Source of the DNA: a virus
Taxonomy: Duplodnaviria > Heunggongvirae > Uroviricota > Caudoviricetes
Virus record (IMG/VR): IMGVR_UViG_2529293172_000014
Direction: 5' to 3' (one strand)
DNA: 12,342 bases
Shown: piece after piece, positions 1,853 to 12,194 of the stretch
Numbering within the stretch: position 1 is the first letter of the stretch
How the letters are laid out: the number at the start of each line of letters is the position of its first letter
The notes under the pieces: model-generated
The model's input: only the letters and a program-made list of their open reading frames with translations
Told to the model about the DNA's origin: nothing
Databases searched by the model: none
Position numbers and translations under genes: made by a program

Positions 1853-1900
1853 GTCTCTTATGCAACATAACCGGTTGAGAAGTTACTTTGCATACCATTA

Positions 1901-2256: not shown

Positions 2257-2696
2257 TTGGCTGGGGTGTATGCGTTCTTGCGTTAGCCTTAGCCGATCGC
2301 TATTTGCTAAAACGCAAGGACATCACGCATTTAGAACTTGGTGATGTGGAAATTAAACCGGGTTTCATCCGGGTGCCGTTCAAATACCGGTCTAAATTCC
2401 CGTTTTTGCGCGGCGCAACGGTCAGATATTGGATCCGCGATGTTCAGAAGCCAACGACAGTGATTGAAGGCGAACAACGTTGTCTGACGTCGGCTGAACA
2501 GGGCGAAAACAGTGAATGGTTGTACATACCCACTGAATATATGGGTAAAGGAGAACGGCTGTGGCATTTCAACGTCATGGTTACGCATGGCGACTCGTTC
2601 ATTAACCCGTTGTATCGGATTTTCCCTGTTACTCAGCAAATCCGCAGAAGTTACGTAATAAATCTCGCACAGGATGTGTCAGATGACGAAAAATAA
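2253..2696 (+). CDS. lydB: Antiholin-like protein (LydB-like), N-terminal hydrophobic anchor
   Basis: 147 aa; ATGA start/stop overlap with the preceding gene, RBS AGGGAGG. N-terminal MIGWGVCVLALALA segment then a soluble domain. Assignment by position and size relative to recalled P1 lydB. Confidence 0.5.
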   Translation: MIGWGVCVLALALADRYLLKRKDITHLELGDVEIKPGFIRVPFKYRSKFPFLRGATVRYWIRDVQKPTTVIEGEQRCLTSAEQGENSEWLYIPTEYMGKGERLWHFNVMVTHGDSFINPLYRIFPVTQQIRRSYVINLAQDVSDDEK

Positions 2697-3285
2697 GTAT
2701 GCAACGGTCGATTTTGACCAGGTTAATGAAAAGGGGCTGAAATCCCTTATCGCGGCGATCAATAAAACCGGTGTTACGGTAATTGAGGTTGACTCCAGCA
2801 ACCGCGCAACAACGAAAGATGGCGTTAAAGTTAAAACCGCAAAGCTGGTTCTTAACGACGGACAAATTCTTGCCATACAGGTAAACGATACTGGCGATAT
2901 ATCGTCTGTGAGGCTGAATGGAAAAGCTATTCCTAACGCTCAGTCGCCGGATATCAAGACGCTTGGTACCGTCATGGGGCAAGCGGCCCGCAAAAACTCC
3001 GCAAAATTCCAGAAATCACTGATCGCCAAAGCGAAACGTGTTGCCAATCCGGTAGACAAGAAACCGGCAGTAAAATCCAACTTTCAGCGCCTGCAAGAGG
3101 CAAAACAGCGGAATGCTCAGGTGGTTGCCGCTTATAAATCAGCGCAGAACTCGGTGTCTTTCAATCAACAGCAGATCACTGATTTGCGGGCGAAGCTGGA
3201 TAAGGAGACAGGCCGACTCAATAACGAAAAGGCCCGAAATGGCGAACTCAAACGCCGTCTTAAGCAACTGAAAGCAGGAAATTAA
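2683..3285 (+). CDS. hdf: Hdf-like head-morphogenesis protein of the Dar system (paralogous to the DarA N-terminal region)
   Basis: Start chosen at the second ATG (2683, MTKNKYATV), which has AGGA 8 nt upstream; the 2674 ATG has no spacing for an RBS. Shares LNDGQILAIQV / KNSAKFQ blocks with the downstream DarA-like protein (LSDGQTISILF / KNSAKFQ). C-terminal K/R-rich coiled-coil-like tail. Confidence 0.55.
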   Translation: MTKNKYATVDFDQVNEKGLKSLIAAINKTGVTVIEVDSSNRATTKDGVKVKTAKLVLNDGQILAIQVNDTGDISSVRLNGKAIPNAQSPDIKTLGTVMGQAARKNSAKFQKSLIAKAKRVANPVDKKPAVKSNFQRLQEAKQRNAQVVAAYKSAQNSVSFNQQQITDLRAKLDKETGRLNNEKARNGELKRRLKQLKAGN

Positions 3286-3286
3286 C

Positions 3287-5206
3287 ATGGAACAGTTCAA
3301 TATCAATAAAGGGGTGACGATCAAGCCTGGGCTTGACGTGCTTCCCCCGCCAGTGACTGATGATGAATATCGCGCATTAATGGCCGGTGAGGACCGCTAT
3401 CTGATGACGGAATCCAACACCCTGGAGGAAATCGAGGCTACGTTCTTCTATGACACGCCGATCCACTGGTGTGCTACGGATTTACTGGAGGCGATTAGTT
3501 CTACTCGTTTGCAGTTACACCGGACCATGCAGGCATTTGTCCGGGCATTGAACCAGAAGCTGAATGGTACCGGAATCTCTGCGGGGAGTGATAAAACGGG
3601 GGATGTGGCCCAGAGCGGCGCGCGCGCGATCGGCGGTGCTGAAATTGGCCGGGCACGTAACGTTAACGGGCTGCCGGTCCTGCCAGCCATTATTCCGCTC
3701 AGTGATGGTCAGACTATCAGCATTCTGTTTCATAGCCCGACAGCGGAAAACCGGATCACCAATAGCGATACGCTGGTTGCTTTCCAGTTCTTACTGAATA
3801 AAAAAGACGTTACTCACACCGTTGCTCCGATGAGTGGACGTGATATGACGCTGGCGCAGGTCACCATGAAACTTGCCAACCTTGCAGAGAAAAACTCGGC
3901 AAAATTTCAGCGTGCGCAGAAGAAGAAAAAAGCCCTTGTTGATGAAATAACCCAACTACAGGCTGACAGTGACCAGAAAGAGGATGCCATGAGCGACCTC
4001 GTGGATCAGGTGGCAGCGGTAGAAGGGCAGAAGGTAGATCTGGAGCAGAAAATTAACGCTGTTGCATCGGAAGCGGATTCTCTTTATGAAGAGAATGAGC
4101 GTTTGCAGACGGAGATTGATCAGCTCAATCGCACTGGTGGGCGCGATACCATTGCTCCTGCGGGGATGACTGGTGGACACTCTCGCGCGATGACGGATCG
4201 CCTTGCCAGTATCAAAAATCGTATGCATATGAACGGGGAAGTGACGCTCAGTAATGGTGCATCAATGAAGCAATTCATTGAGGACGGCGAAGGGTATATC
4301 CAGTTAACCGATTCGGATGGCAGCGTGTACATGATCAAGGCTAAATCCATACAGGGTGTGGACATGGCAGATGCGATCGGCAAGCTGTTTAAAGCCTATA
4401 AAGCGGGTAATGTATCGGAATACCTGGTCCAACCAGAAGAACATAAACCGGAAAACGTCGAACCTGAACCAGCGGAGGATACCGGTAGCTCTTCGCCTGA
4501 ACCAGAAGTCTCTGTAGGTGCATATCGATATGCCCTGCAAATGCGTCCGGCGGCCCCTGGCGCAATACCTGAAGGTAACAAAGCAATTCTGCCGCGCCCT
4601 GATGAAGGTGACCCGTATTATGAATATGCACGCTACGGCATTGCTACTTACGATACCCCGCTTTCTGATCAGCAAATGAGTGAGTACGACCTGAAGTTAT
4701 TGCCTCGCGAGGATTCTTTCGACTTCCTGGCGAAGACACTTACTAATGGTCCGTTTGGCAAATATGCACAAAAAGCTCTGGAGCTGGCCACCAGCTCACC
4801 AGACGAGTTCCGCGTAATGCTGAAAACTCAGTTTCAAAAAACTTTCCCCAATATTGCGTTTCCGGGGGGCGCTGGCACCGAGAAAATGGTGCAGAGCATG
4901 ATCAATGCATTGCAGGCCGAAGTCGGTGAGATTACTCAGCCAGAACCTGCCCCGGCACAGCCTGATGAAACGGTTAGCGAAGCAGATGCAGAGGCTAATA
5001 AAGCCATTGAATATCTCAATAACGTGATGGATATGCAAAGCACTGACATGGCGGAGATCCGTAACGCCCGGGGTAATGTCCGGGAAGCGATTGCAGCCCT
5101 TCAGGCTGCCGGGCGTTTTGAGGAAAACGAAGAGCTGGTTAATGGCGCTGCTCGCCACTTGGCTGATCTGCTGGTAGCAATCCAGAAAGCGGGGGTAGCG
5201 GCATGA
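3287..5206 (+). CDS. darA: DarA-like internal head / antirestriction protein
   Basis: 639 aa; starts 1 nt after the hdf stop with an AGGAA RBS. Central coiled-coil-like region (LVDEITQLQADSDQKED...ENERLQTEIDQL) and an acidic Pro/Glu-rich linker (PEEHKPENVEPEPAEDTGSSSPEPE). Size and operon position match recalled P1 DarA. Confidence 0.65.
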   Translation: MEQFNINKGVTIKPGLDVLPPPVTDDEYRALMAGEDRYLMTESNTLEEIEATFFYDTPIHWCATDLLEAISSTRLQLHRTMQAFVRALNQKLNGTGISAGSDKTGDVAQSGARAIGGAEIGRARNVNGLPVLPAIIPLSDGQTISILFHSPTAENRITNSDTLVAFQFLLNKKDVTHTVAPMSGRDMTLAQVTMKLANLAEKNSAKFQRAQKKKKALVDEITQLQADSDQKEDAMSDLVDQVAAVEGQKVDLEQKINAVASEADSLYEENERLQTEIDQLNRTGGRDTIAPAGMTGGHSRAMTDRLASIKNRMHMNGEVTLSNGASMKQFIEDGEGYIQLTDSDGSVYMIKAKSIQGVDMADAIGKLFKAYKAGNVSEYLVQPEEHKPENVEPEPAEDTGSSSPEPEVSVGAYRYALQMRPAAPGAIPEGNKAILPRPDEGDPYYEYARYGIATYDTPLSDQQMSEYDLKLLPREDSFDFLAKTLTNGPFGKYAQKALELATSSPDEFRVMLKTQFQKTFPNIAFPGGAGTEKMVQSMINALQAEVGEITQPEPAPAQPDETVSEADAEANKAIEYLNNVMDMQSTDMAEIRNARGNVREAIAALQAAGRFEENEELVNGAARHLADLLVAIQKAGVAA

Positions 5207-5568
5207 CACTATCAGCTATTGAGTTAATGGATCTCAGCGATAAGTTGGATGCTTTGATGTCCAAAGCGGCTACCGCGAGTGGCATGGAGTTGCTGGATAT
5301 CAGCGATGAAATTGACCAGATCATGCAACAGATGGGGTACGGTGTGTCCGGTGGCAGTAGTGGCGAGGAAAAACAACCTTCGGTACATGATGGTGTGCCA
5401 AAACTGGTTGCTGATTTCCTGGCTGATAAATTCGTCGATCAGAGCACCGATGCATTTATCGGTACCTTGCAGGATTTGAGTCAATATGTTGGCACATACA
5501 TCGACCTGGACCAGGTTAAACAGCACACGGCGGCATGGATAGCCGCCAACATTAAAGAGGCAGCATAA
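5203..5568 (+). CDS. ddrA: DdrA-like small Dar-operon protein
   Basis: 121 aa; ATGA overlap with darA. Contains an internal tandem repeat IELMDLSDKLDALM / MELLDISDEIDQIM. Confidence 0.55.
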   Translation: MTLSAIELMDLSDKLDALMSKAATASGMELLDISDEIDQIMQQMGYGVSGGSSGEEKQPSVHDGVPKLVADFLADKFVDQSTDAFIGTLQDLSQYVGTYIDLDQVKQHTAAWIAANIKEAA

Positions 5569-5580
5569 GGCGTAACAGGG

Positions 5581-8568
5581 ATGAGCTTAAGCGATCAGGT
5601 GGTAATGGCCACCAGCATAGAAACGCTGATCGAGCTGCTAAAGAACCTGCCCGGTTATGGGCGGGTTTCGTATGTGGTGACAGCGAAGGGAGACGAGGTA
5701 AAAACAGCGTTTGATATCGTCGATGCCTCAGCTCTTTTGGTATCCAATACTCTGGATGGGAAAATTAATCCTGACTATCCCCAGGAACTTCAGCCGCGCG
5801 ACCGGACCCGCGCATCCAGCCTTCTTCAGGTTAACCAGATATCCAAAGATTTGCGGCCTGCTCAGCTTACTGATTCCGGTTTATCCAGCCATGGTGCGCC
5901 GATAATTGGTGAGGACAATGCCGTTGAGTCAGGTAATGGACGGACCATGGGGATCATCAAAGCCTATCAGGACGGCAATGCGGATCGGTATCGTGAGTAC
6001 CTGATTGATCATGCGACCGAATTCGGCATACGACCTGAAAAGGTTGAATCAATGACGGCTCCGGTACTGGTGCGCCGCCGGTTAACCAAGGTTGACCGCG
6101 TTCAGTTTGCCAAGGACTCAAATATTTCTGATCTTCAGGAAATGGCAGCCAGTGAAAAGGCTTTTGTTGATGCCGACAGCATAACACCGGCGATGATGGC
6201 GCTTTTTAACCCGTCAGAAAGCGGAGATCTGCTTAGCCGCAGTAATGACGCGTTTATTCGCGGATTTATGACGCAAGTTGGTGCCACACAGGCGGCTGGC
6301 CTTGTAACTGAAGATGGGCGACCAACACGGCAACTTGTAGACCGTATACAAAACGCGATCTTTGCCAAGGCATATAAGGATGCGCGCCTGGTAAGGATGG
6401 TTGCAGAAGAACCTGATCCGGACATGCGTAATGTTCTGACGGCGCTTAATGCGGCAGCCAATGATTTTGTCCAGATGCAGGCTTTATCAGGAGAAGCGCA
6501 CAAGCAGGCTGTGACAACTATCGTTGATGGTATTGAAACAGCGGATAGCCTCGATAAAAAGGCGCTGGCGGCATTGAAAGATGCGGTAGACCTGGTAAGG
6601 CAATCGAAGGAGTCAGGCCAACATATTAACGATGTTATTGCTCAGGGGGATATGTTCAGCGAAACGGCCCCGGAAGTGAAAGCACTCGCGTTGTTCATCG
6701 TCGCGAATAACCGTAGCGCGAAGCGTATGGCCTCCGCCTTTAAGTTGATGGCTCAACGTATCAATGATGAGTTACAGCACCAGGGCCAGGCGCTGGGGGA
6801 TATGTTTGGCGGTGGTGATGTGTCGTTACAGGATATCCTTCGCCAGGTGTCTCAGGAACTGGAAAACGAAGGCATGCAAGGGATATCCGGCGGTCTTTTC
6901 GAGTCCGTTTCCGGCGGTAGTTACAATGGTGTTGCTCCATATACCAGTTTGCTATTACATCGGGCATCCGGCATCAAAGACATTATTCATCTGATCAGGC
7001 TGCTTTCCCGTACAGATCCCCAGGATGAACAGCTTGTACAAGTGCTTGCGCATTTTGTTCGAATGCCTGTTGCCGACGTGAAAAAATGGTGCCGATTATT
7101 CGGTATCAGCAATTCGTTACTTCGCGGCTTGTTAAATCACGCATCCTCCCTTGGGCGCGATGGCTTTGACGAGATAGCGCAGGCGATAAAAAACGGAGAT
7201 ATGCCACCAGCTATTGACTGGTTTTCCATTCGCCCAACCAGGGTGAAAGCATTCCTTAGCGCGGCGCATTCGGCATCACCATTGGCAGAAATGGTTCAGA
7301 GGTTGTCGCTCATATTCACAGACCATACCGCGTTGGGTGATCTGACTCTGGACGAGATGAAAGAAGCCTCCATTCAGTGGGCCGATCAACAAAATGAGGT
7401 TAACTCTGACTTCTTGCCAGCATTCAGGAAGGCCGTTAGTAAAGCTGATGATGCCCGTGGAATTCTGAGGGCATTTAAGGCATTGCAAAGTCAGGTTAAT
7501 AAACATGTCGGTGATATCGATGGGGTAACGGCGGAAGGCAGGGATATCCTTAAAGAGCACGGCATAACGCCAGAGTTTATTGATGAGATCAGGACTGATA
7601 TGCAGCGTGAGGTCGTATCGTCCCTGCAAATCGTAGCCAGAGCGTTGGCGGATGCTAATCCGAAGAGTGCGGCCATTGTTAACCGTGTTATTGGTGATAT
7701 TGAAGCATCGGAGGGCATGGGGGCGCTGAAACTCTTCCTTTCGCGAGCGTTTAATCCTAACGGCAATATTCTCCCCGGCATTATTGGTGAGGCTAAAAAG
7801 TATGTCAGCGAAGAAGAACTTGAGCATCTTGACCAACTACTTAAGCGATTCTCATATAACCCGCAGACACGCTGGCAAATGAATCAGCAAAGTATGGGTT
7901 CGGTCCACGAGAAAGTGTTATCTGCCATGAACAGTGCGATCGCCAACTCATCCGTATCTGAAGAAAAAGCTCTTGAGTGGGCCGACTCTTTTATCACGGA
8001 AGAAGTGGAAGAAGCCCGCGCTGGACAGAATGGTGGGATAGACCTGCGCAAGGAACTTGCTGATATTTATCGCCTGACCGGCGGTAAAATTTCGACCTTA
8101 TCAAAGGTGGTTCACCACCAGGGAAGGGCATATGCAAATATTAATGGTGTTGTTGCTGTCAATTTGAACGATGAAAATGCAAGTGCACTGTGGCACGAGC
8201 TGGGTCATCATCTTGAGTACAGTAACCTTGGTTTGTTAGAGAAAGCCCGGTCATTCCTGAAGGCCAATGTTGAAGGGGATAAGCCATCTTTCGTTAATAT
8301 CGGTGGGCGTGGCAAGCCTGAATGGTGCTTCAGATCTCGATTGAGTAATATTTATATGGCGAAGGTATACCCGCCAGCCTCAGTAAGTAACACCGGGAAA
8401 ATTCGGCAGAAATCACCGACTATTTCCAAAACGTCAGCAACGGAAGTATTCTCTATGGCTCTTCAGTTGTATCATGACAAAGAGGCCGCTGCCGCATCAC
8501 TGATGAATGGTGACGGATTGCTGGAACTGTTATTAGGTGTGGCAAAGGAGCTAAATAATGCAGATTAA
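5581..8568 (+). CDS. ddrB: DdrB-like large Dar-operon protein; carries an HEXXH motif near the C-terminus
   Basis: 995 aa, uninterrupted ORF in operon with the preceding genes. WHELGHHLEYS at codons 871-877 (nt 8191-8211). Size and position match recalled P1 DdrB. Confidence 0.6.
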   Translation: MSLSDQVVMATSIETLIELLKNLPGYGRVSYVVTAKGDEVKTAFDIVDASALLVSNTLDGKINPDYPQELQPRDRTRASSLLQVNQISKDLRPAQLTDSGLSSHGAPIIGEDNAVESGNGRTMGIIKAYQDGNADRYREYLIDHATEFGIRPEKVESMTAPVLVRRRLTKVDRVQFAKDSNISDLQEMAASEKAFVDADSITPAMMALFNPSESGDLLSRSNDAFIRGFMTQVGATQAAGLVTEDGRPTRQLVDRIQNAIFAKAYKDARLVRMVAEEPDPDMRNVLTALNAAANDFVQMQALSGEAHKQAVTTIVDGIETADSLDKKALAALKDAVDLVRQSKESGQHINDVIAQGDMFSETAPEVKALALFIVANNRSAKRMASAFKLMAQRINDELQHQGQALGDMFGGGDVSLQDILRQVSQELENEGMQGISGGLFESVSGGSYNGVAPYTSLLLHRASGIKDIIHLIRLLSRTDPQDEQLVQVLAHFVRMPVADVKKWCRLFGISNSLLRGLLNHASSLGRDGFDEIAQAIKNGDMPPAIDWFSIRPTRVKAFLSAAHSASPLAEMVQRLSLIFTDHTALGDLTLDEMKEASIQWADQQNEVNSDFLPAFRKAVSKADDARGILRAFKALQSQVNKHVGDIDGVTAEGRDILKEHGITPEFIDEIRTDMQREVVSSLQIVARALADANPKSAAIVNRVIGDIEASEGMGALKLFLSRAFNPNGNILPGIIGEAKKYVSEEELEHLDQLLKRFSYNPQTRWQMNQQSMGSVHEKVLSAMNSAIANSSVSEEKALEWADSFITEEVEEARAGQNGGIDLRKELADIYRLTGGKISTLSKVVHHQGRAYANINGVVAVNLNDENASALWHELGHHLEYSNLGLLEKARSFLKANVEGDKPSFVNIGGRGKPEWCFRSRLSNIYMAKVYPPASVSNTGKIRQKSPTISKTSATEVFSMALQLYHDKEAAAASLMNGDGLLELLLGVAKELNNAD

Positions 8569-8869
8569 AATCGCAGCGCCATTAGGCGGAGATGCCATTA
8601 TCGAATTTGATGATAATGAAGAAGTTTCCGGGCGTTTAAGCATTATCTCCGGTGACATTACCGAGGACATGATCGCTGAAGCCATAGCTGGGGCAAATCC
8701 CAATAGCTATATGGGATTCGTTAACACCCTTGATGCTCCCGCAAGTGATGTTCTCCGAACGCTGCATCTTTACGCTGGCTGGTTTGTTGATTGGCCAGCA
8801 GTAGATGGTGGCGATGAGGACGACGACGACGATGATTTTGGTGATCATGTAGACCAGATCGTATATTGA
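8558..8869 (+). CDS. Small highly acidic protein with a poly-Asp tract
   Basis: 103 aa; AAGGAG RBS 7 nt upstream of the ATG; overlaps the ddrB stop by 11 nt (translational coupling). Roughly 24 Asp/Glu against 3 Lys/Arg; DEDDDDDD tract encoded by GATGAG(GAC)4GATGAT at 8813-8836. Confidence 0.55.
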   Translation: MQIKIAAPLGGDAIIEFDDNEEVSGRLSIISGDITEDMIAEAIAGANPNSYMGFVNTLDAPASDVLRTLHLYAGWFVDWPAVDGGDEDDDDDDFGDHVDQIVY

Positions 8870-8871
8870 AG

Positions 8872-8897
8872 AAATCCCGCCAATTGGCGGGATTTTT
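8872..8897. terminator. Rho-independent, probably bidirectional, terminator between convergent operons
   Basis: Perfect 10-bp stem AAATCCCGCC (8872-8881), loop AATT, GGCGGGATTT (8886-8895), followed by TT on the plus strand. Lies exactly between the stop of 8558..8869 (+) and the stop of 8901..9995 (-). Confidence 0.7.
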
Positions 8898-8900
8898 ACC

Positions 8901-9995
8901 TCACGAGAAACTCTTTTCTGATGTCAGCCAACAGTGCTCGTGCATATCTCTTGGTGGTTTTTCGACAAATGCCTCTTCAGCCACATCCTGCCAGGGGATT
9001 TGTTTAGCCCATTCAGTTATAGCGTTATGGTTTGCCGAGAATAACGGTATTGTATAGGCCTTCAGCCAGTCTAATGTGCTGGAGTTGTGTTTTTGAGCGT
9101 GATGTTTCGCATGGTGTTTGGCGATCACGATCGTAGGCACTACCCATTTACTACCGTCAGTCATTGTGAAGTGCATATTACGGGGAACAGATGACTTTTC
9201 CATCAACTCCCGAATCCCTGGGAATTTCCCCAAGATCAATCGGCGATATTCATCGCTATTGCGCCCACCAAACTCTTTGGCTTTGAATTCAAGATATGCT
9301 TCAGAAACGAGAGGTGAATCCTCTGTGTTTAGAGTTATCGCCGTGAAAAAACCAGCAGGATTGTTTTTACTATGGGCCAACCGGTGATGCGAATCATAAA
9401 AGTACCCTTTCTCGCGTTCCGATGGTTTCGACAGCAACAGCAGGCGCGAGTCATAATTGGTTAAATTGCCAGTTATCACTGCATGAGCGCGATCGCTGAT
9501 TTCCGCCGAGTTAATAACGATGAAAAGATCGTGCGGTCCAGTAAAACCAGCCAGAGACTCTTCGTTATTCAGACAATAGGTTATATAGACGCATCCCCAT
9601 GTTTCACTGATATGCACCAACCCTTTGTCAGGGTGTATTCTGAAATAATTGCCAAGAAAAGTGTGTTTTTGGGTAACTCGCTCCCAATAACGGAACATAT
9701 AGTCAATTATTGTTTTTCGACAATCGTTAATCGCAGGAGAAACAACCACTGTACGGGAACACGAATACAGTATTGTTTGCAGGATGCTAATCACTGCCAC
9801 AATAGAGGTTTCCCCAATACCATGTGGTGTGGTGGCAGTGATTTTGGCTCCGGTGTTCTTTATCGCGTTAATAATTTTTGCTTGATGAGGTGTTAACTCA
9901 ATATCAAGCAACTCTTTTGCTGCCAGTTCCCAATTGTCTTTATACCGTTCTATCAGTGCTAACCAGGCAGATTCATTCTGTATACGATTAATCAC
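8901..9995 (-). CDS. Hypothetical protein (364 aa); degenerate P-loop-like GIGETS segment and a His-rich HAKHHAKHHAQKH motif
   Basis: Long minus-strand ORF; GTG start at 9995 with GAGGTGG RBS; overlaps the upstream gene's stop by 8 nt. No motif I can assign with confidence. The layout (LTPHQ...GIGETS...DLFIVINSAE...ITGN) loosely recalls an ATPase domain, but the Walker lysine is absent. Confidence 0.6.
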   Translation of the reverse strand: MINRIQNESAWLALIERYKDNWELAAKELLDIELTPHQAKIINAIKNTGAKITATTPHGIGETSIVAVISILQTILYSCSRTVVVSPAINDCRKTIIDYMFRYWERVTQKHTFLGNYFRIHPDKGLVHISETWGCVYITYCLNNEESLAGFTGPHDLFIVINSAEISDRAHAVITGNLTNYDSRLLLLSKPSEREKGYFYDSHHRLAHSKNNPAGFFTAITLNTEDSPLVSEAYLEFKAKEFGGRNSDEYRRLILGKFPGIRELMEKSSVPRNMHFTMTDGSKWVVPTIVIAKHHAKHHAQKHNSSTLDWLKAYTIPLFSANHNAITEWAKQIPWQDVAEEAFVEKPPRDMHEHCWLTSEKSFS

Positions 9996-10776
9996 TTTCC
10001 ACCTCTTCCGTGGTGTTTTCTTGCAGTTCTGTTAATGCAGCACGACATAGGTTCCGGGCATTGGCTATAGCCACACTTTTGACTTCATCCGTCATCGTGC
10101 AGGTAATGTACTGATCGAGTTCTTCAGCGCGGATGATGCTTTTGCCAATCAGAAACTGTATTTGCCATAGCAGATCGGCATCCATAATCAGAATTTCTGC
10201 CGGGCCTTCAGGGCCAGCCGGGAAGGAAACATAAGACTGTTTGCCCAGGCCGACAACTCGACAACTTGCTTCAAGAATTGCGCGCTTGAGGTCTGACTTT
10301 ATAACGGAAACAGGTTGATTTTCACCAGTGATTACGCCGTTGACATGGAAAGGCATGTAGCTTGAAATACGCTCTACTTTCCACACGCCAGCAAGCGATC
10401 CTTCATGCAGCACAATGGGGGTAACCGCGAGTTTCATCTCACCATATAACTGCTGGCAGATAGCTGGATTGCTGAATACATCTAAAGGCTCACATTCAAA
10501 CAGCGGCGCAATCTGCATGAGGTCCATCATGGTCATCCCTGGGGTACGAGCAGTAATGAATTTGCGCATACCAGTATCCATTGCGCTCCAGATTGCTACA
10601 CCATGCTTTTTGCTCACTTCTTCAGTAAAGCCAAGGTGGCACATGATGGTTTTTTCGATAGCCAGATCAGAGATAGAAACCTTTTCGCCAGGTACTCCAT
10701 CATTATTGATGGTCACTTCGACACTCTGGCCATTACGTAGGCGGTATTGAATGGTTTTAGTATTTTGTGCTGTCAT
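9988..10776 (-). CDS. Hypothetical protein (about 263 aa from ATG 10776)
   Basis: Long minus-strand ORF, translationally coupled to the downstream 8901..9995 gene. Start placed at MTAQNTK (ATG 10776) because the track's extension to 10896 would overlap the small upstream ORF 10791..10973; starts at 10890/10896 cannot be excluded. No recognisable catalytic motif. Confidence 0.5.
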   Translation of the reverse strand: MTAQNTKTIQYRLRNGQSVEVTINNDGVPGEKVSISDLAIEKTIMCHLGFTEEVSKKHGVAIWSAMDTGMRKFITARTPGMTMMDLMQIAPLFECEPLDVFSNPAICQQLYGEMKLAVTPIVLHEGSLAGVWKVERISSYMPFHVNGVITGENQPVSVIKSDLKRAILEASCRVVGLGKQSYVSFPAGPEGPAEILIMDADLLWQIQFLIGKSIIRAEELDQYITCTMTDEVKSVAIANARNLCRAALTELQENTTEEVESD

Positions 10777-10790
10777 AGTCTTTTCTCTGC

Positions 10791-10973
10791 TTAAAAACTG
10801 ATGTATTGCGTCTTCAGGTGGGTTAGGAATGTTTTCCCACCAGCGAAAGCAATATCTCGTGGTGTTCTGTTCGTTAAAAACGCGTGCCATTGCCAACTTT
10901 GGCGTTTTTTAGCGAGTTCGTGCTTTTGTTGGCGTTTGGACCACCGCTTTTCTTTCAGTCGTTTTTTACTCAT
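10791..10973 (-). CDS. Possible small basic protein (60 aa), tightly packed between ssb and the next gene
   Basis: MSKKRLKEKRWSKRQQKHELAKKRQ...; starts 5 nt after the ssb stop and ends 15 nt before ATG 10776. Weak RBS. Could instead be a non-coding spacer; an 8-bp inverted repeat AAAAACGC...GCGTTTTT (10876-10883 / 10903-10910) lies inside it. Confidence 0.3.
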   Translation of the reverse strand: MSKKRLKEKRWSKRQQKHELAKKRQSWQWHAFLTNRTPRDIAFAGGKTFLTHLKTQYISF

Positions 10974-10978
10974 AAACT

Positions 10979-11467
10979 CTAAAACGGAATATCGTCTTCA
11001 AAGTCCATTGGAGGTTCGTTATTGGCGCTGCTCTGAGGTTTGCCGCCACCGCTGTATTGCTGGTGGTTTTGAGGTTGGTTTGACTGCCCCCAGCCATTTG
11101 AGGACTGTGAATCGTCGCGGCGAGTGCCGATCATTTGCATGGTGCCGCCCTGGCTGACGATAATTTCCGTCGTGTAACGTTCTACACCGGCGTCATCAGT
11201 CCACTTACGGGTTTTAAGTTTCCCTTCGATGTAGACCTGAGAACCTTTTCGTAAATACTCACTCGCAATTTCAGCAAGTTTTCCGAACAAAACGACTTTA
11301 TGCCATTCTGTTTGCTCTTTCTGTTGGCCCGTTTGCTTATCGCGCCATGATTCATTCGTTGCGATGCTGAGTCTTCCGACTGCGCCGCCATTTGGTATAT
11401 ACCTGATCTCCGGGTCTTGCCCCAGGGTACCAATCAGGATGACTTTGTTTACACCGCGTTGTGCCAC
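10979..11467 (-). CDS. ssb: Single-stranded DNA-binding protein
   Basis: [23 protein letters not shown]...[14 protein letters not shown]-fold core, Gly/Gln-rich linker and the C-terminal acidic tail [12 protein letters not shown] start at 11467. Confidence 0.95.
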
Positions 11468-11636
11468 TTTTCTTACCTAATAAAATAAATTAATTAGAGC
11501 AATAATGTATATCTTTGAAACGTGGCTAACAAGTGATTTGCATTATCCTGTGCCTTCTAAAGGGATCGAGTCAGTCGGTATTGGCTGTGAATGAGTGTTT
11601 GTCCTGGAGCGTAAAAAATTCGCTTATGAGGTCTTT
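11468..11636. promoter_or_regulatory. Divergent promoter region between ssb (leftward) and lyz (rightward)
   Basis: 169-bp AT-rich non-coding gap between divergently oriented starts; contains TTGAAA (11515-11520) and CATTAT (11541-11546). No promoter element pinned down with confidence. In P1, lyz is a late gene, so an Lpa-type late promoter is expected here. Confidence 0.3.
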
Positions 11637-12194
11637 ATGAAGGGAAAAACAGCCGCAGGAGGCGGTGCAATTTGCGCTATCGCGGTGATGATTACCATCG
11701 TGATGGGTAATGGCAATGTGCGAACCAACCAGGCGGGGCTTGAGCTGATTGGTAACGCTGAAGGTTGCCGACGTGATCCATACATGTGCCCGGCGGGGGT
11801 ATGGACTGACGGGATCGGTAATACACACGGGGTAACGCCGGGTGTGCGAAAAACCGACCAGCAAATCGCCGCTGATTGGGAAAAGAATATCCTGATCGCT
11901 GAACGCTGTATTAATCAGCACTTCCGGGGCAAAGACATGCCCGATAATGCCTTCAGTGCAATGACAAGCGCGGCATTCAATATGGGATGCAATAGCTTAC
12001 GGACCTACTACAGCAAAGCGCGAGGCATGCGAGTAGAAACGTCCATCCACAAGTGGGCGCAGAAAGGGGAATGGGTGAATATGTGTAACCATCTCCCTGA
12101 TTTCGTGAACAGTAACGGCGTGCCCCTGCGAGGTTTAAAGATTCGCCGTGAAAAAGAACGCCAGCTTTGCCTGACGGGGCTTGTCAATGAATAA
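11637..12194 (+). CDS. lyz: SAR (signal-arrest-release) endolysin, T4-lysozyme-like muramidase (P1 Lyz-type)
   Basis: Start at ATG 11637 (GAGG RBS 6 nt upstream), not the track's 11595. 185 aa beginning MKGKTAAGGGAICAIAVMITIVMGNGN (weakly hydrophobic Gly/Ala-rich SAR segment), then NAEGCRRDPYMCPAGVWTDGIG with Glu42, Cys44, Cys51, Thr57 and Cys13 at the positions I recall for P1 Lyz. Confidence 0.9.
   Translation: MKGKTAAGGGAICAIAVMITIVMGNGNVRTNQAGLELIGNAEGCRRDPYMCPAGVWTDGIGNTHGVTPGVRKTDQQIAADWEKNILIAERCINQHFRGKDMPDNAFSAMTSAAFNMGCNSLRTYYSKARGMRVETSIHKWAQKGEWVNMCNHLPDFVNSNGVPLRGLKIRREKERQLCLTGLVNE

Follow-up and report, generated by a model that had tools for sequence, protein, structure and literature searches.

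The hxr gene of P1-like phage-plasmids: a ddrB-coupled gene encoding a small acidic protein with a length-variable aspartate tract

The hxr locus and its coupling to ddrB

In the current study, a 12.3 kb stretch of viral DNA (12,342 nucleotides (nt); hereafter the window) was analysed with respect to a short open reading frame (ORF) on its plus strand, which extends from an ATG to a TGA at positions 8558..8869 (stop included) and specifies a protein of 103 amino acids (aa). The window originates from a P1-like phage-plasmid (Punavirus), of which it covers the darA region, and displays 97–99% identity to P1, P7, SJ46 and RCS47, and the ORF under study is 100% identical to a copy located on plasmid NZ_CP009168 of Escherichia coli 1303. 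The ORF corresponds to the P1 gene hxr (P1_gp021, YP_006490; PHROG 2292) and had as such already been catalogued, though this was not recognised in the initial annotation of the window. Membership of this family is evident from a match to PHROG 2292 that covers aa 1–103, i.e. the full length of the protein (E 3.2e-60), and from 98% aa identity to Hxr of P1 (NC_005856) within the same gene order. The P1 gene occupies the same site after ddrB with the same 11-nt overlap; the two proteins differ in that six Asp residues follow Asp-Glu in Hxr of the window (103 aa) and five in the P1 reference (102 aa), and by the further substitutions N56D and A81V.

The gene preceding hxr, annotated as ddrB in P1, encodes 995 aa (5581..8568, plus strand) and ends with a TAA codon at 8566–8568, such that the start of hxr and the stop of ddrB overlap by 11 nt (8558..8568, plus strand). 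A Shine-Dalgarno sequence, AAGGAG (8545..8550, plus strand), is situated 7 nt upstream of the hxr ATG and inside the conserved Lys and Glu codons near the end of DdrB (..KEL..). Since the ribosome binding site resides in the last codons of ddrB and the start overlaps its stop, ribosomes that complete DdrB can re-initiate on hxr, in agreement with the translational coupling proposed by the initial annotation.

The gene is transcribed late, from LPdar (1880..1898, plus strand; composed of a −22 box and a −10 element), an exact 19-nt match to LPdar of NC_005856 that marks the start of the darA operon and is the sole exact match to a P1 late promoter upstream of hxr on the plus strand. No sigma-70-like site was present in positions 8300–9100, and no internal promoter for hxr was thus found. 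Directly 3′ of the hxr stop, ahead of a convergent minus-strand gene at 8901–9995, RNA folding revealed a GC-rich hairpin resembling an intrinsic terminator (8870..8897, plus strand; 12-bp stem, 4-nt loop and U-run), with a folding energy of −19.3 kcal/mol and a z-score of −5.6, which none of 200 shuffled sequences equalled. With LPdar as the only promoter found and a terminator following its stop, hxr is the last cistron of an approximately 7-kb late operon comprising lydA (1927–2256), lydB (2253–2696), hdf (2674–3285), darA (3287–5206), ddrA (5203–5568), ddrB and hxr, which substantiates its earlier placement at the end of an antirestriction operon.

The coupled arrangement was retained in every lineage for which upstream context was available, with an overlap between hxr and ddrB of 11–17 nt and the Shine-Dalgarno sequence located in the 'KEL' codons of DdrB; the motif AAGGAG or a one-base variant thereof (CAGGAG, ACGGAG or AAGGAA) is positioned 7 nt before the start codon in 12 of 12 loci. 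These lineages span Cronobacter phage JK004, Citrobacter, Leclercia, E. coli plasmids and metagenomic contigs, at 30–46% identity, and the coupling must therefore be viewed as an ancient and conserved property of the family rather than as an accident of the window. The order hdf-darA-ddrA-ddrB-hxr was likewise kept in all loci with context, confirming that hxr belongs to the Dar operon. Searches of the phage collection with tblastn identified Hxr in 20 records and the full-length C-terminal part of DdrB (coverage of at least 80%) in 20 records, these being the same accessions. On the basis of these observations, hxr accompanies ddrB obligately, and in translational coupling to it, in all relatives that could be detected, a relationship that is newly described here.

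The remaining genes of the window were assigned, as was the gene order above, by combining searches of Pfam and PHROG with the annotation of P1 (NC_005856). A cin-type invertase gene (572–1153) and lydC (1589–1852) precede the operon, while ssb (10979–11467, minus strand), the late promoter LPlyz (11531–11549), which is as exactly conserved as LPdar and lies upstream of the endolysin gene, and lyz (11595–12194) are located at the far end. An antisense ORF inside ddrB (6135–6503, minus strand) corresponds to iddB of the P1 annotation ('unknown protein function'). Between the hxr terminator and ssb lie two overlapping minus-strand genes of unknown function, which encode proteins of 364 aa (8901–9995; PHROG 5902) and 302 aa (9988–10896; PHROG 2326) and which gave no match in Pfam, NCBIfam or PADLOC; the 364-aa protein yielded a weak match to a terminase-large-subunit PHROG (E 4.5e-9). 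This slot is occupied by isaB-IS1-isaA in P1 and by a porin gene in other relatives, namely ompD in a Klebsiella plasmid (PMC5786510) and a porin-family gene in a metagenomic P1-like contig (L091), and the stretch from the hxr terminator to ssb looks like a variable cargo site.

Selection, spread and architecture of Hxr

Comparison of the core-encoding part of hxr with that of seven diverged homologues yielded 0.19–0.47 non-synonymous differences per site (pN) against 0.57–0.85 synonymous differences per site (pS), and the ratio of the corresponding substitution rates (dN/dS) was 0.2–0.4 where dS could be estimated, establishing hxr as a real gene under purifying selection. Intact Hxr accounts for 848 members of one cluster at 90% identity, with broken forms represented by one to three members each. 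The latter are rare frameshifted or truncated database alleles (P0005, P0006, P0008 and P0009), among which P0005 carries a frame shift just before the acidic tract, which is then read in another frame; these copies may stem from sequencing errors, or a few isolates may truly have lost the tail.

The gene was found in 479 of 5,426 complete E. coli genomes (approximately 9%), nearly always on plasmids, and in 504 plasmids of PLSDB from Escherichia, Salmonella, Klebsiella, Citrobacter, Shigella, Leclercia and Enterobacter. An exhaustive HMMER scan with the family profile against 1.84 billion representative proteins returned 18 matches that constitute one small family, made up of P1-like copies, fragments of these, approximately seven diverged lineages (P0017–P0023; 96–100 aa, 30–42% identity) and one tandem duplication (P0015; 184 aa). 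Three large proteins with marginal scores, P0022 (an SprB/DUF11 adhesin), P0024 and P0026, were rejected as homologues, their scores being the sum of weak matches to internal repeats. A scan of genome contigs detected three near-identical hxr loci only.

As stated in the initial annotation, the protein is small and extremely acidic: its 103 residues include 18 Asp and 6 Glu (24 acidic in total) against one Lys and two Arg (three basic), in addition to two His residues, resulting in a computed isoelectric point (pI) of 4.05 and a charge of approximately −21 at pH 7. Hxr and DdrA share the position of most acidic product in the window. The product of hdf has a net charge of +21 and a pI of 10.3, such that Hdf and Hxr (net −21) form the basic and acidic extremes of the operon per residue; this match in charge may be a coincidence or a hint of electrostatic pairing.

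An AlphaFold2 model computed on an alignment of 12 sequences predicts a mixed alpha/beta fold of four strands and two helices for aa 1–82 (8558..8803, plus strand), arranged as beta-beta-beta-alpha-long conserved loop-alpha-beta, followed by a disordered, polyanionic C-terminal tail, aa 83–103 (DGGDEDDDDDDFGDHVDQIVY; 8804..8866, plus strand), which terminates in two hydrophobic residues and a Tyr. The mean predicted local distance difference test (pLDDT) values per block are mostly 82–89 in the core, with a lower value of 69 at residues 21–30, and 45–52 in the tail. Conservation is highest at P8, G32, N49/S50, G53, V55-N56, V65-L66-R67, W75 and W79-P80. Past this last WP motif, the 23 residues of aa 81–103 comprise 11 acidic and no basic residues, and with a core that is itself acidic (13 acidic against three basic residues), roughly half of Hxr's net negative charge is carried by the tail that is predicted to be disordered.

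The acidic character was found to be a family trait, a point on which the initial annotation had made its proposal dependent. In 11 of 11 diverged members the motif W-x-[VI]-x-W-P is followed by a tail of 21–25 aa with 8–11 acidic and zero to one basic residues. The sequence of this tail is not conserved, in contrast to its charge and its C-terminal [IV]-[IV]-[NYH] ending; the tail His of P1 is not conserved in distant homologues, and the homopolymeric Asp run is limited to the P1-proper lineage. Structure comparisons detected no fold relatives of the core, and the defining feature of Hxr, first described here from the model, is a predicted disordered acidic tail on a core of that kind. The tandem duplication mentioned above (L091, 8001–8555) still overlaps ddrB; its first copy carries only a short acidic linker (WDDEEDLIV), while the second copy keeps a poly-Asp tail. 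Both halves of its model show the core topology of Hxr, with a predicted template modelling score (pTM) of 0.47, at which their mutual orientation is uncertain and nothing can be deduced regarding dimerisation.

The acidic tract itself is encoded by GAT GAG (8813–8818), (GAC)4 (8819–8830) and (GAT)2 (8831–8836), which together (8813..8836, plus strand) specify the DEDDDDDD run of aa 86–93 reported by the initial annotation, and (GAC)4 is the sole run of two or more GAC units in the window. The proposal that the repeat could change in length without loss of frame was borne out by a survey of 83 copies of near-identical sequence, drawn from the window, P1, IMG/VR and genome loci, which revealed seven alleles, all copies (83/83) being in frame. 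The most frequent allele is (GAC)3(GAT)2 (37/83), followed by (GAC)4(GAT)2 (18/83), (GAC)2(GAT)2 (11/83), the all-Asp tract GAT GAT (GAC)3 (GAT)3 (10/83), (GAC)3 GAT (GAC)2 (GAT)2 (3/83) and two minor alleles with two copies each. Most alleles thereby specify four, five, six or eight Asp residues after Asp-Glu, one specifies an uninterrupted run of eight Asp residues and an Asn breaks the run in one of the minor alleles. Three identical 900-nt flanking haplotypes were each associated with two tract alleles, which is indicative of recent and recurrent change. No on/off switching of expression by repeat number was seen in these copies, and as the unit is a trinucleotide present in only two to four GAC copies, the variation points to length tuning, or to drift of a tolerant tail, rather than to phase variation. 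This length polymorphism of the Asp run in the P1 lineage is newly reported here.

Possible functions of Hxr

The explanation that we tentatively favour is that Hxr is an accessory protein of the Dar module which partners DdrB or the Dar proteins and possesses an acidic tail that serves to shield or mimic nucleic acid. It derives from the late expression of hxr, its strict and ancient coupling to ddrB, the conserved folded core and a tail that appears to be selected for charge and not for sequence. A genome-wide CRISPR interference screen of P1 in a non-restricting host identified hxr as non-essential (PMC10695390), which fits an accessory role. The presumed partner contains an N-terminal DdrB-type ParB domain (Pfam PF18763, E 2e-39) and a C-terminal metallopeptidase region with an HExxH motif (HELGH at aa 872), beyond which lies a basic patch (aa 901–950) with a charge of +6 to +7 per 40 aa; it has been described as combining a ParB-type domain with a zincin-like peptidase and has been reported to be processed (PMC5512222).

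Under this proposal, synthesis of Hxr would keep pace with that of DdrB, and its core would bind to DdrB or to a different component of the Dar system or the capsid. Its polyanionic tail could serve as a nucleic acid-like electrostatic shield or competitor, for which the ParB-type domain of DdrB, the basic patch past its HExxH motif and the very basic Hdf represent candidate targets, and it may keep the partner soluble, free of DNA and amenable to loading into the procapsid, in the manner of the small acidic chaperones encoded beside injected effectors. Alternatively, Hxr may travel with its partner into the next cell. Slippage in the (GAC)n repeat would alter the length of the tail in frame, a change that the tail would tolerate if it is its charge, and not its sequence, that matters. 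A more elaborate form of the proposal, which in its entirety we consider rather unlikely, holds that Hxr is a seventh Dar component with a new fold and a nucleic acid-mimicking tail, that it is synthesised in concert with DdrB, that it is loaded into the capsid or is required for the loading of DdrB and DarB, that it contributes to withstanding type I systems or other defences that sense DNA and that the slippage-prone (GAC)n tunes the length of the tail. In a broader version, large metallopeptidase-bearing virion effectors of unrelated phages, such as those of P1-like phages and of Vibrio Ackermannviridae, may each possess a small partner that is translationally coupled to them.

Several observations weigh against a partner role. 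Hxr was not among the 27 virion proteins of P1 detected through liquid chromatography coupled to tandem mass spectrometry (LC-MS/MS) (PMC9024508). That analysis required two tryptic peptides, and as Hxr contains only three Lys/Arg residues, one tryptic peptide of convenient size would be expected, rendering the approach biased against Hxr and the test a weak one; its absence from the virion list argues against stoichiometric packaging and is compatible with a chaperone that is left behind. The same study does not mention hxr in its text or supplement, its antirestriction knockouts being those of pmg and upf genes, and no antirestriction assay of hxr was found in the accessible literature. No fold similarity of Hxr to known secretion or assembly chaperones was detected. 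Finally, a Logan contig (SRR4294974_505; L003) carries an hxr-like gene at 1962–2326 (63% identity, a run of seven Asp residues and a TTG start) upstream of which ddrB is reduced to its final ~60 nt, with dinI still further upstream on the opposite strand. As this remnant of ddrB persists, the locus was rejected as an example of a stand-alone hxr, and it represents either a natural copy with a truncated ddrB or an assembly chimera.

The initial annotation had compared Hxr to DNA-mimic proteins such as Ocr and ArdA or to an acidic chaperone, and a free-standing mimic of the former type, probably oligomeric and with carboxylates arranged like the DNA backbone, would titrate type I or other DNA-binding defence proteins independently of DdrB, either following ejection or late in infection. 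The charge of approximately −21 over 103 aa, the pI of 4.05, the acidity of all homologues and the location of the gene within an antirestriction operon are in keeping with such a function. Since small acidic DNA mimics are known in many unrelated folds, Hxr might act in this way even though no match to its fold was obtained. Membership of the Ocr or ArdA families was nevertheless not upheld, as Hxr has no match at E ≤ 10 in Pfam, which includes both families, or to any other family therein, and no fold match; the predicted alpha/beta core with its disordered tail differs from a rigid elongated dimer shaped like DNA, and about half of the net charge resides in this flexible segment and not on an inflexible surface of that shape. 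Transcription is moreover confined to the late stage, and a mimic produced de novo from a late promoter would be too late for incoming DNA unless packaged, while Hxr went undetected in the virion proteome (PMC9024508; with the same reservation regarding its three Lys/Arg residues). An independent inhibitor would also leave the strict coupling to ddrB unexplained. We consequently view the DNA-mimic concept as a reasonable but unsupported analogy, and a free-standing mimic as unlikely.

A further possibility is that Hxr regulates the DdrB metallopeptidase, its tail with the conserved hydrophobic C-terminus entering the HExxH cleft as a pseudo-substrate or as a carboxylate ligand of the zinc, such that DdrB would remain latent until assembly and its reported processing would be controlled. 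The HELGH motif is located ~120 residues before the hxr junction, the coupling to ddrB is conserved, and the reported processing of DdrB is predicted to be performed by its peptidase domain (PMC5512222). In addition, the DdrB-peptidase-like proteins of Vibrio Ackermannviridae are also followed by a gene for a protein of 87–90 aa. This regulatory role is, however, purely inferential, the His in the tail of P1 Hxr is not conserved among the distant family members, and the small Vibrio proteins are not detectably homologous to Hxr (hhalign probability 0.4%), non-acidic and devoid of an acidic tail; taken together, we regard it as quite improbable. The Vibrio genes in question (L096, 5849–6121; L097, 3199–3462; L098, 3046–3309; L099, 3067–3330) are separated from the upstream gene by a 3-nt gap or overlap it by 4 nt, the large upstream proteins being 26–29% identical to the metallopeptidase part of DdrB. 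The small protein of VAP7, misannotated as 'tetraspanin-15', gave the top template modelling (TM) score to the Hxr model in BFVD (0.42/0.46). Given the hhalign result and their lack of acidity, the small Vibrio proteins were rejected as Hxr homologues and constitute a positional lead only. That hxr is a functionless hitch-hiker, kept merely by its overlap with the 3′ end of ddrB, would be consistent with its dispensability for plaque formation and with the few frameshifted or truncated database copies, yet across all 300 nt of the gene, just 11–17 of which overlap ddrB, pN stays far lower than pS, and length, core motifs and tail charge are maintained down to 30% identity. The dominance of the intact form (848 members against one to three) and its presence in the 479 E. 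coli genomes also speak against this explanation, which we consider very improbable. Most improbable is the identity implied by the label that P1 hxr bears in GenBank, 'possible repressor; homolog of Xre', which has been attached to the gene since 2004 and copied into many phage and plasmid records. Its sole support is a note in NC_005856 of 28% identity over ~58 aa to an Xre phage repressor. Hxr has no helix-turn-helix (HTH) or other Pfam match at E ≤ 10 and no NCBIfam match; the best hit of the family profile among all Protein Data Bank sequences has an E value of 1.2, with no HTH protein recovered, and hhalign comparison to a genuine XRE regulator of a related plasmid returned a probability of 0.2%. 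The predicted four strands and two helices differ from the all-helical five-helix fold of such repressors, a net charge of −21 is incompatible with DNA binding, and hxr closes a late operon of structural and antirestriction genes; the current RefSeq annotation reads 'hypothetical protein'. An Xre-type repressor is thus effectively refuted by profile, fold and charge evidence and, as established in this study, the label is untenable.

The P1 Dar system is the textbook example of capsid-delivered antirestriction and is currently described with six components, while hxr, in the same operon and on ~9% of complete E. coli genomes, has been carried under a misleading 'repressor' label, the correction of which is a small but real gain. 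Should the favoured role as a chaperone or DNA-mimicking partner prove true, Hxr would add a mechanistic piece to our understanding of the way in which injected anti-defence proteins are loaded by phages and put to use, and would represent a new fold among acidic nucleic acid mimics.

Comparison with known systems

Ocr of T7 and ArdA are, like Hxr, small and very acidic proteins of mobile elements with an antirestriction role, and the charge density of Hxr is probably of the same order as theirs; no sequence or fold similarity links them to Hxr. Ocr (T7 gp0.3) is a rigid helical dimer that mimics bent B-DNA, in contrast to the predicted structure of Hxr, and is expressed first upon DNA entry, whereas hxr is the last gene of the late LPdar operon. 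ArdA is an elongated three-domain dimer, to which Hxr displays no Pfam or structural match, and Hxr is not matched by any entry in PADLOC. A parallel in genetic terms is provided by DdrA, which is also small and acidic (121 aa, pI 4.09), is encoded after the large DarA with a 4-nt overlap and is a virion protein that counteracts EcoA restriction (PMC9024508). DdrA differs from Hxr in lacking a poly-Asp tail, and a paralogous relationship between the two was rejected (hhalign probability 0.5%).

Dedicated chaperones of injected effectors, such as the class I chaperones of type III secretion, resemble Hxr in their size of ~100 aa, their acidity, their location beside a large delivered cargo and their dispensability for growth; no similarity in fold to Hxr was detected, and hxr lies downstream of, and is coupled to, the gene of its presumed cargo. 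The tail of Hxr was rejected as a mimic of the SSB C-terminal tail, since its [IV][IV][N/Y/H] ending is unlike the D-I-P-F motif of SSB. The acidic C-terminal tails of the ssDNA-binding proteins E. coli SSB, T7 gp2.5 and T4 gp32, and D/E-rich tails that mimic DNA, such as that of HMGB1, act as competitors of DNA on basic surfaces and bring in partners, and the SSB-type and HMGB1 tails share with the predicted tail of Hxr the general plan of a disordered Asp/Glu run on a folded domain with a hydrophobic end.

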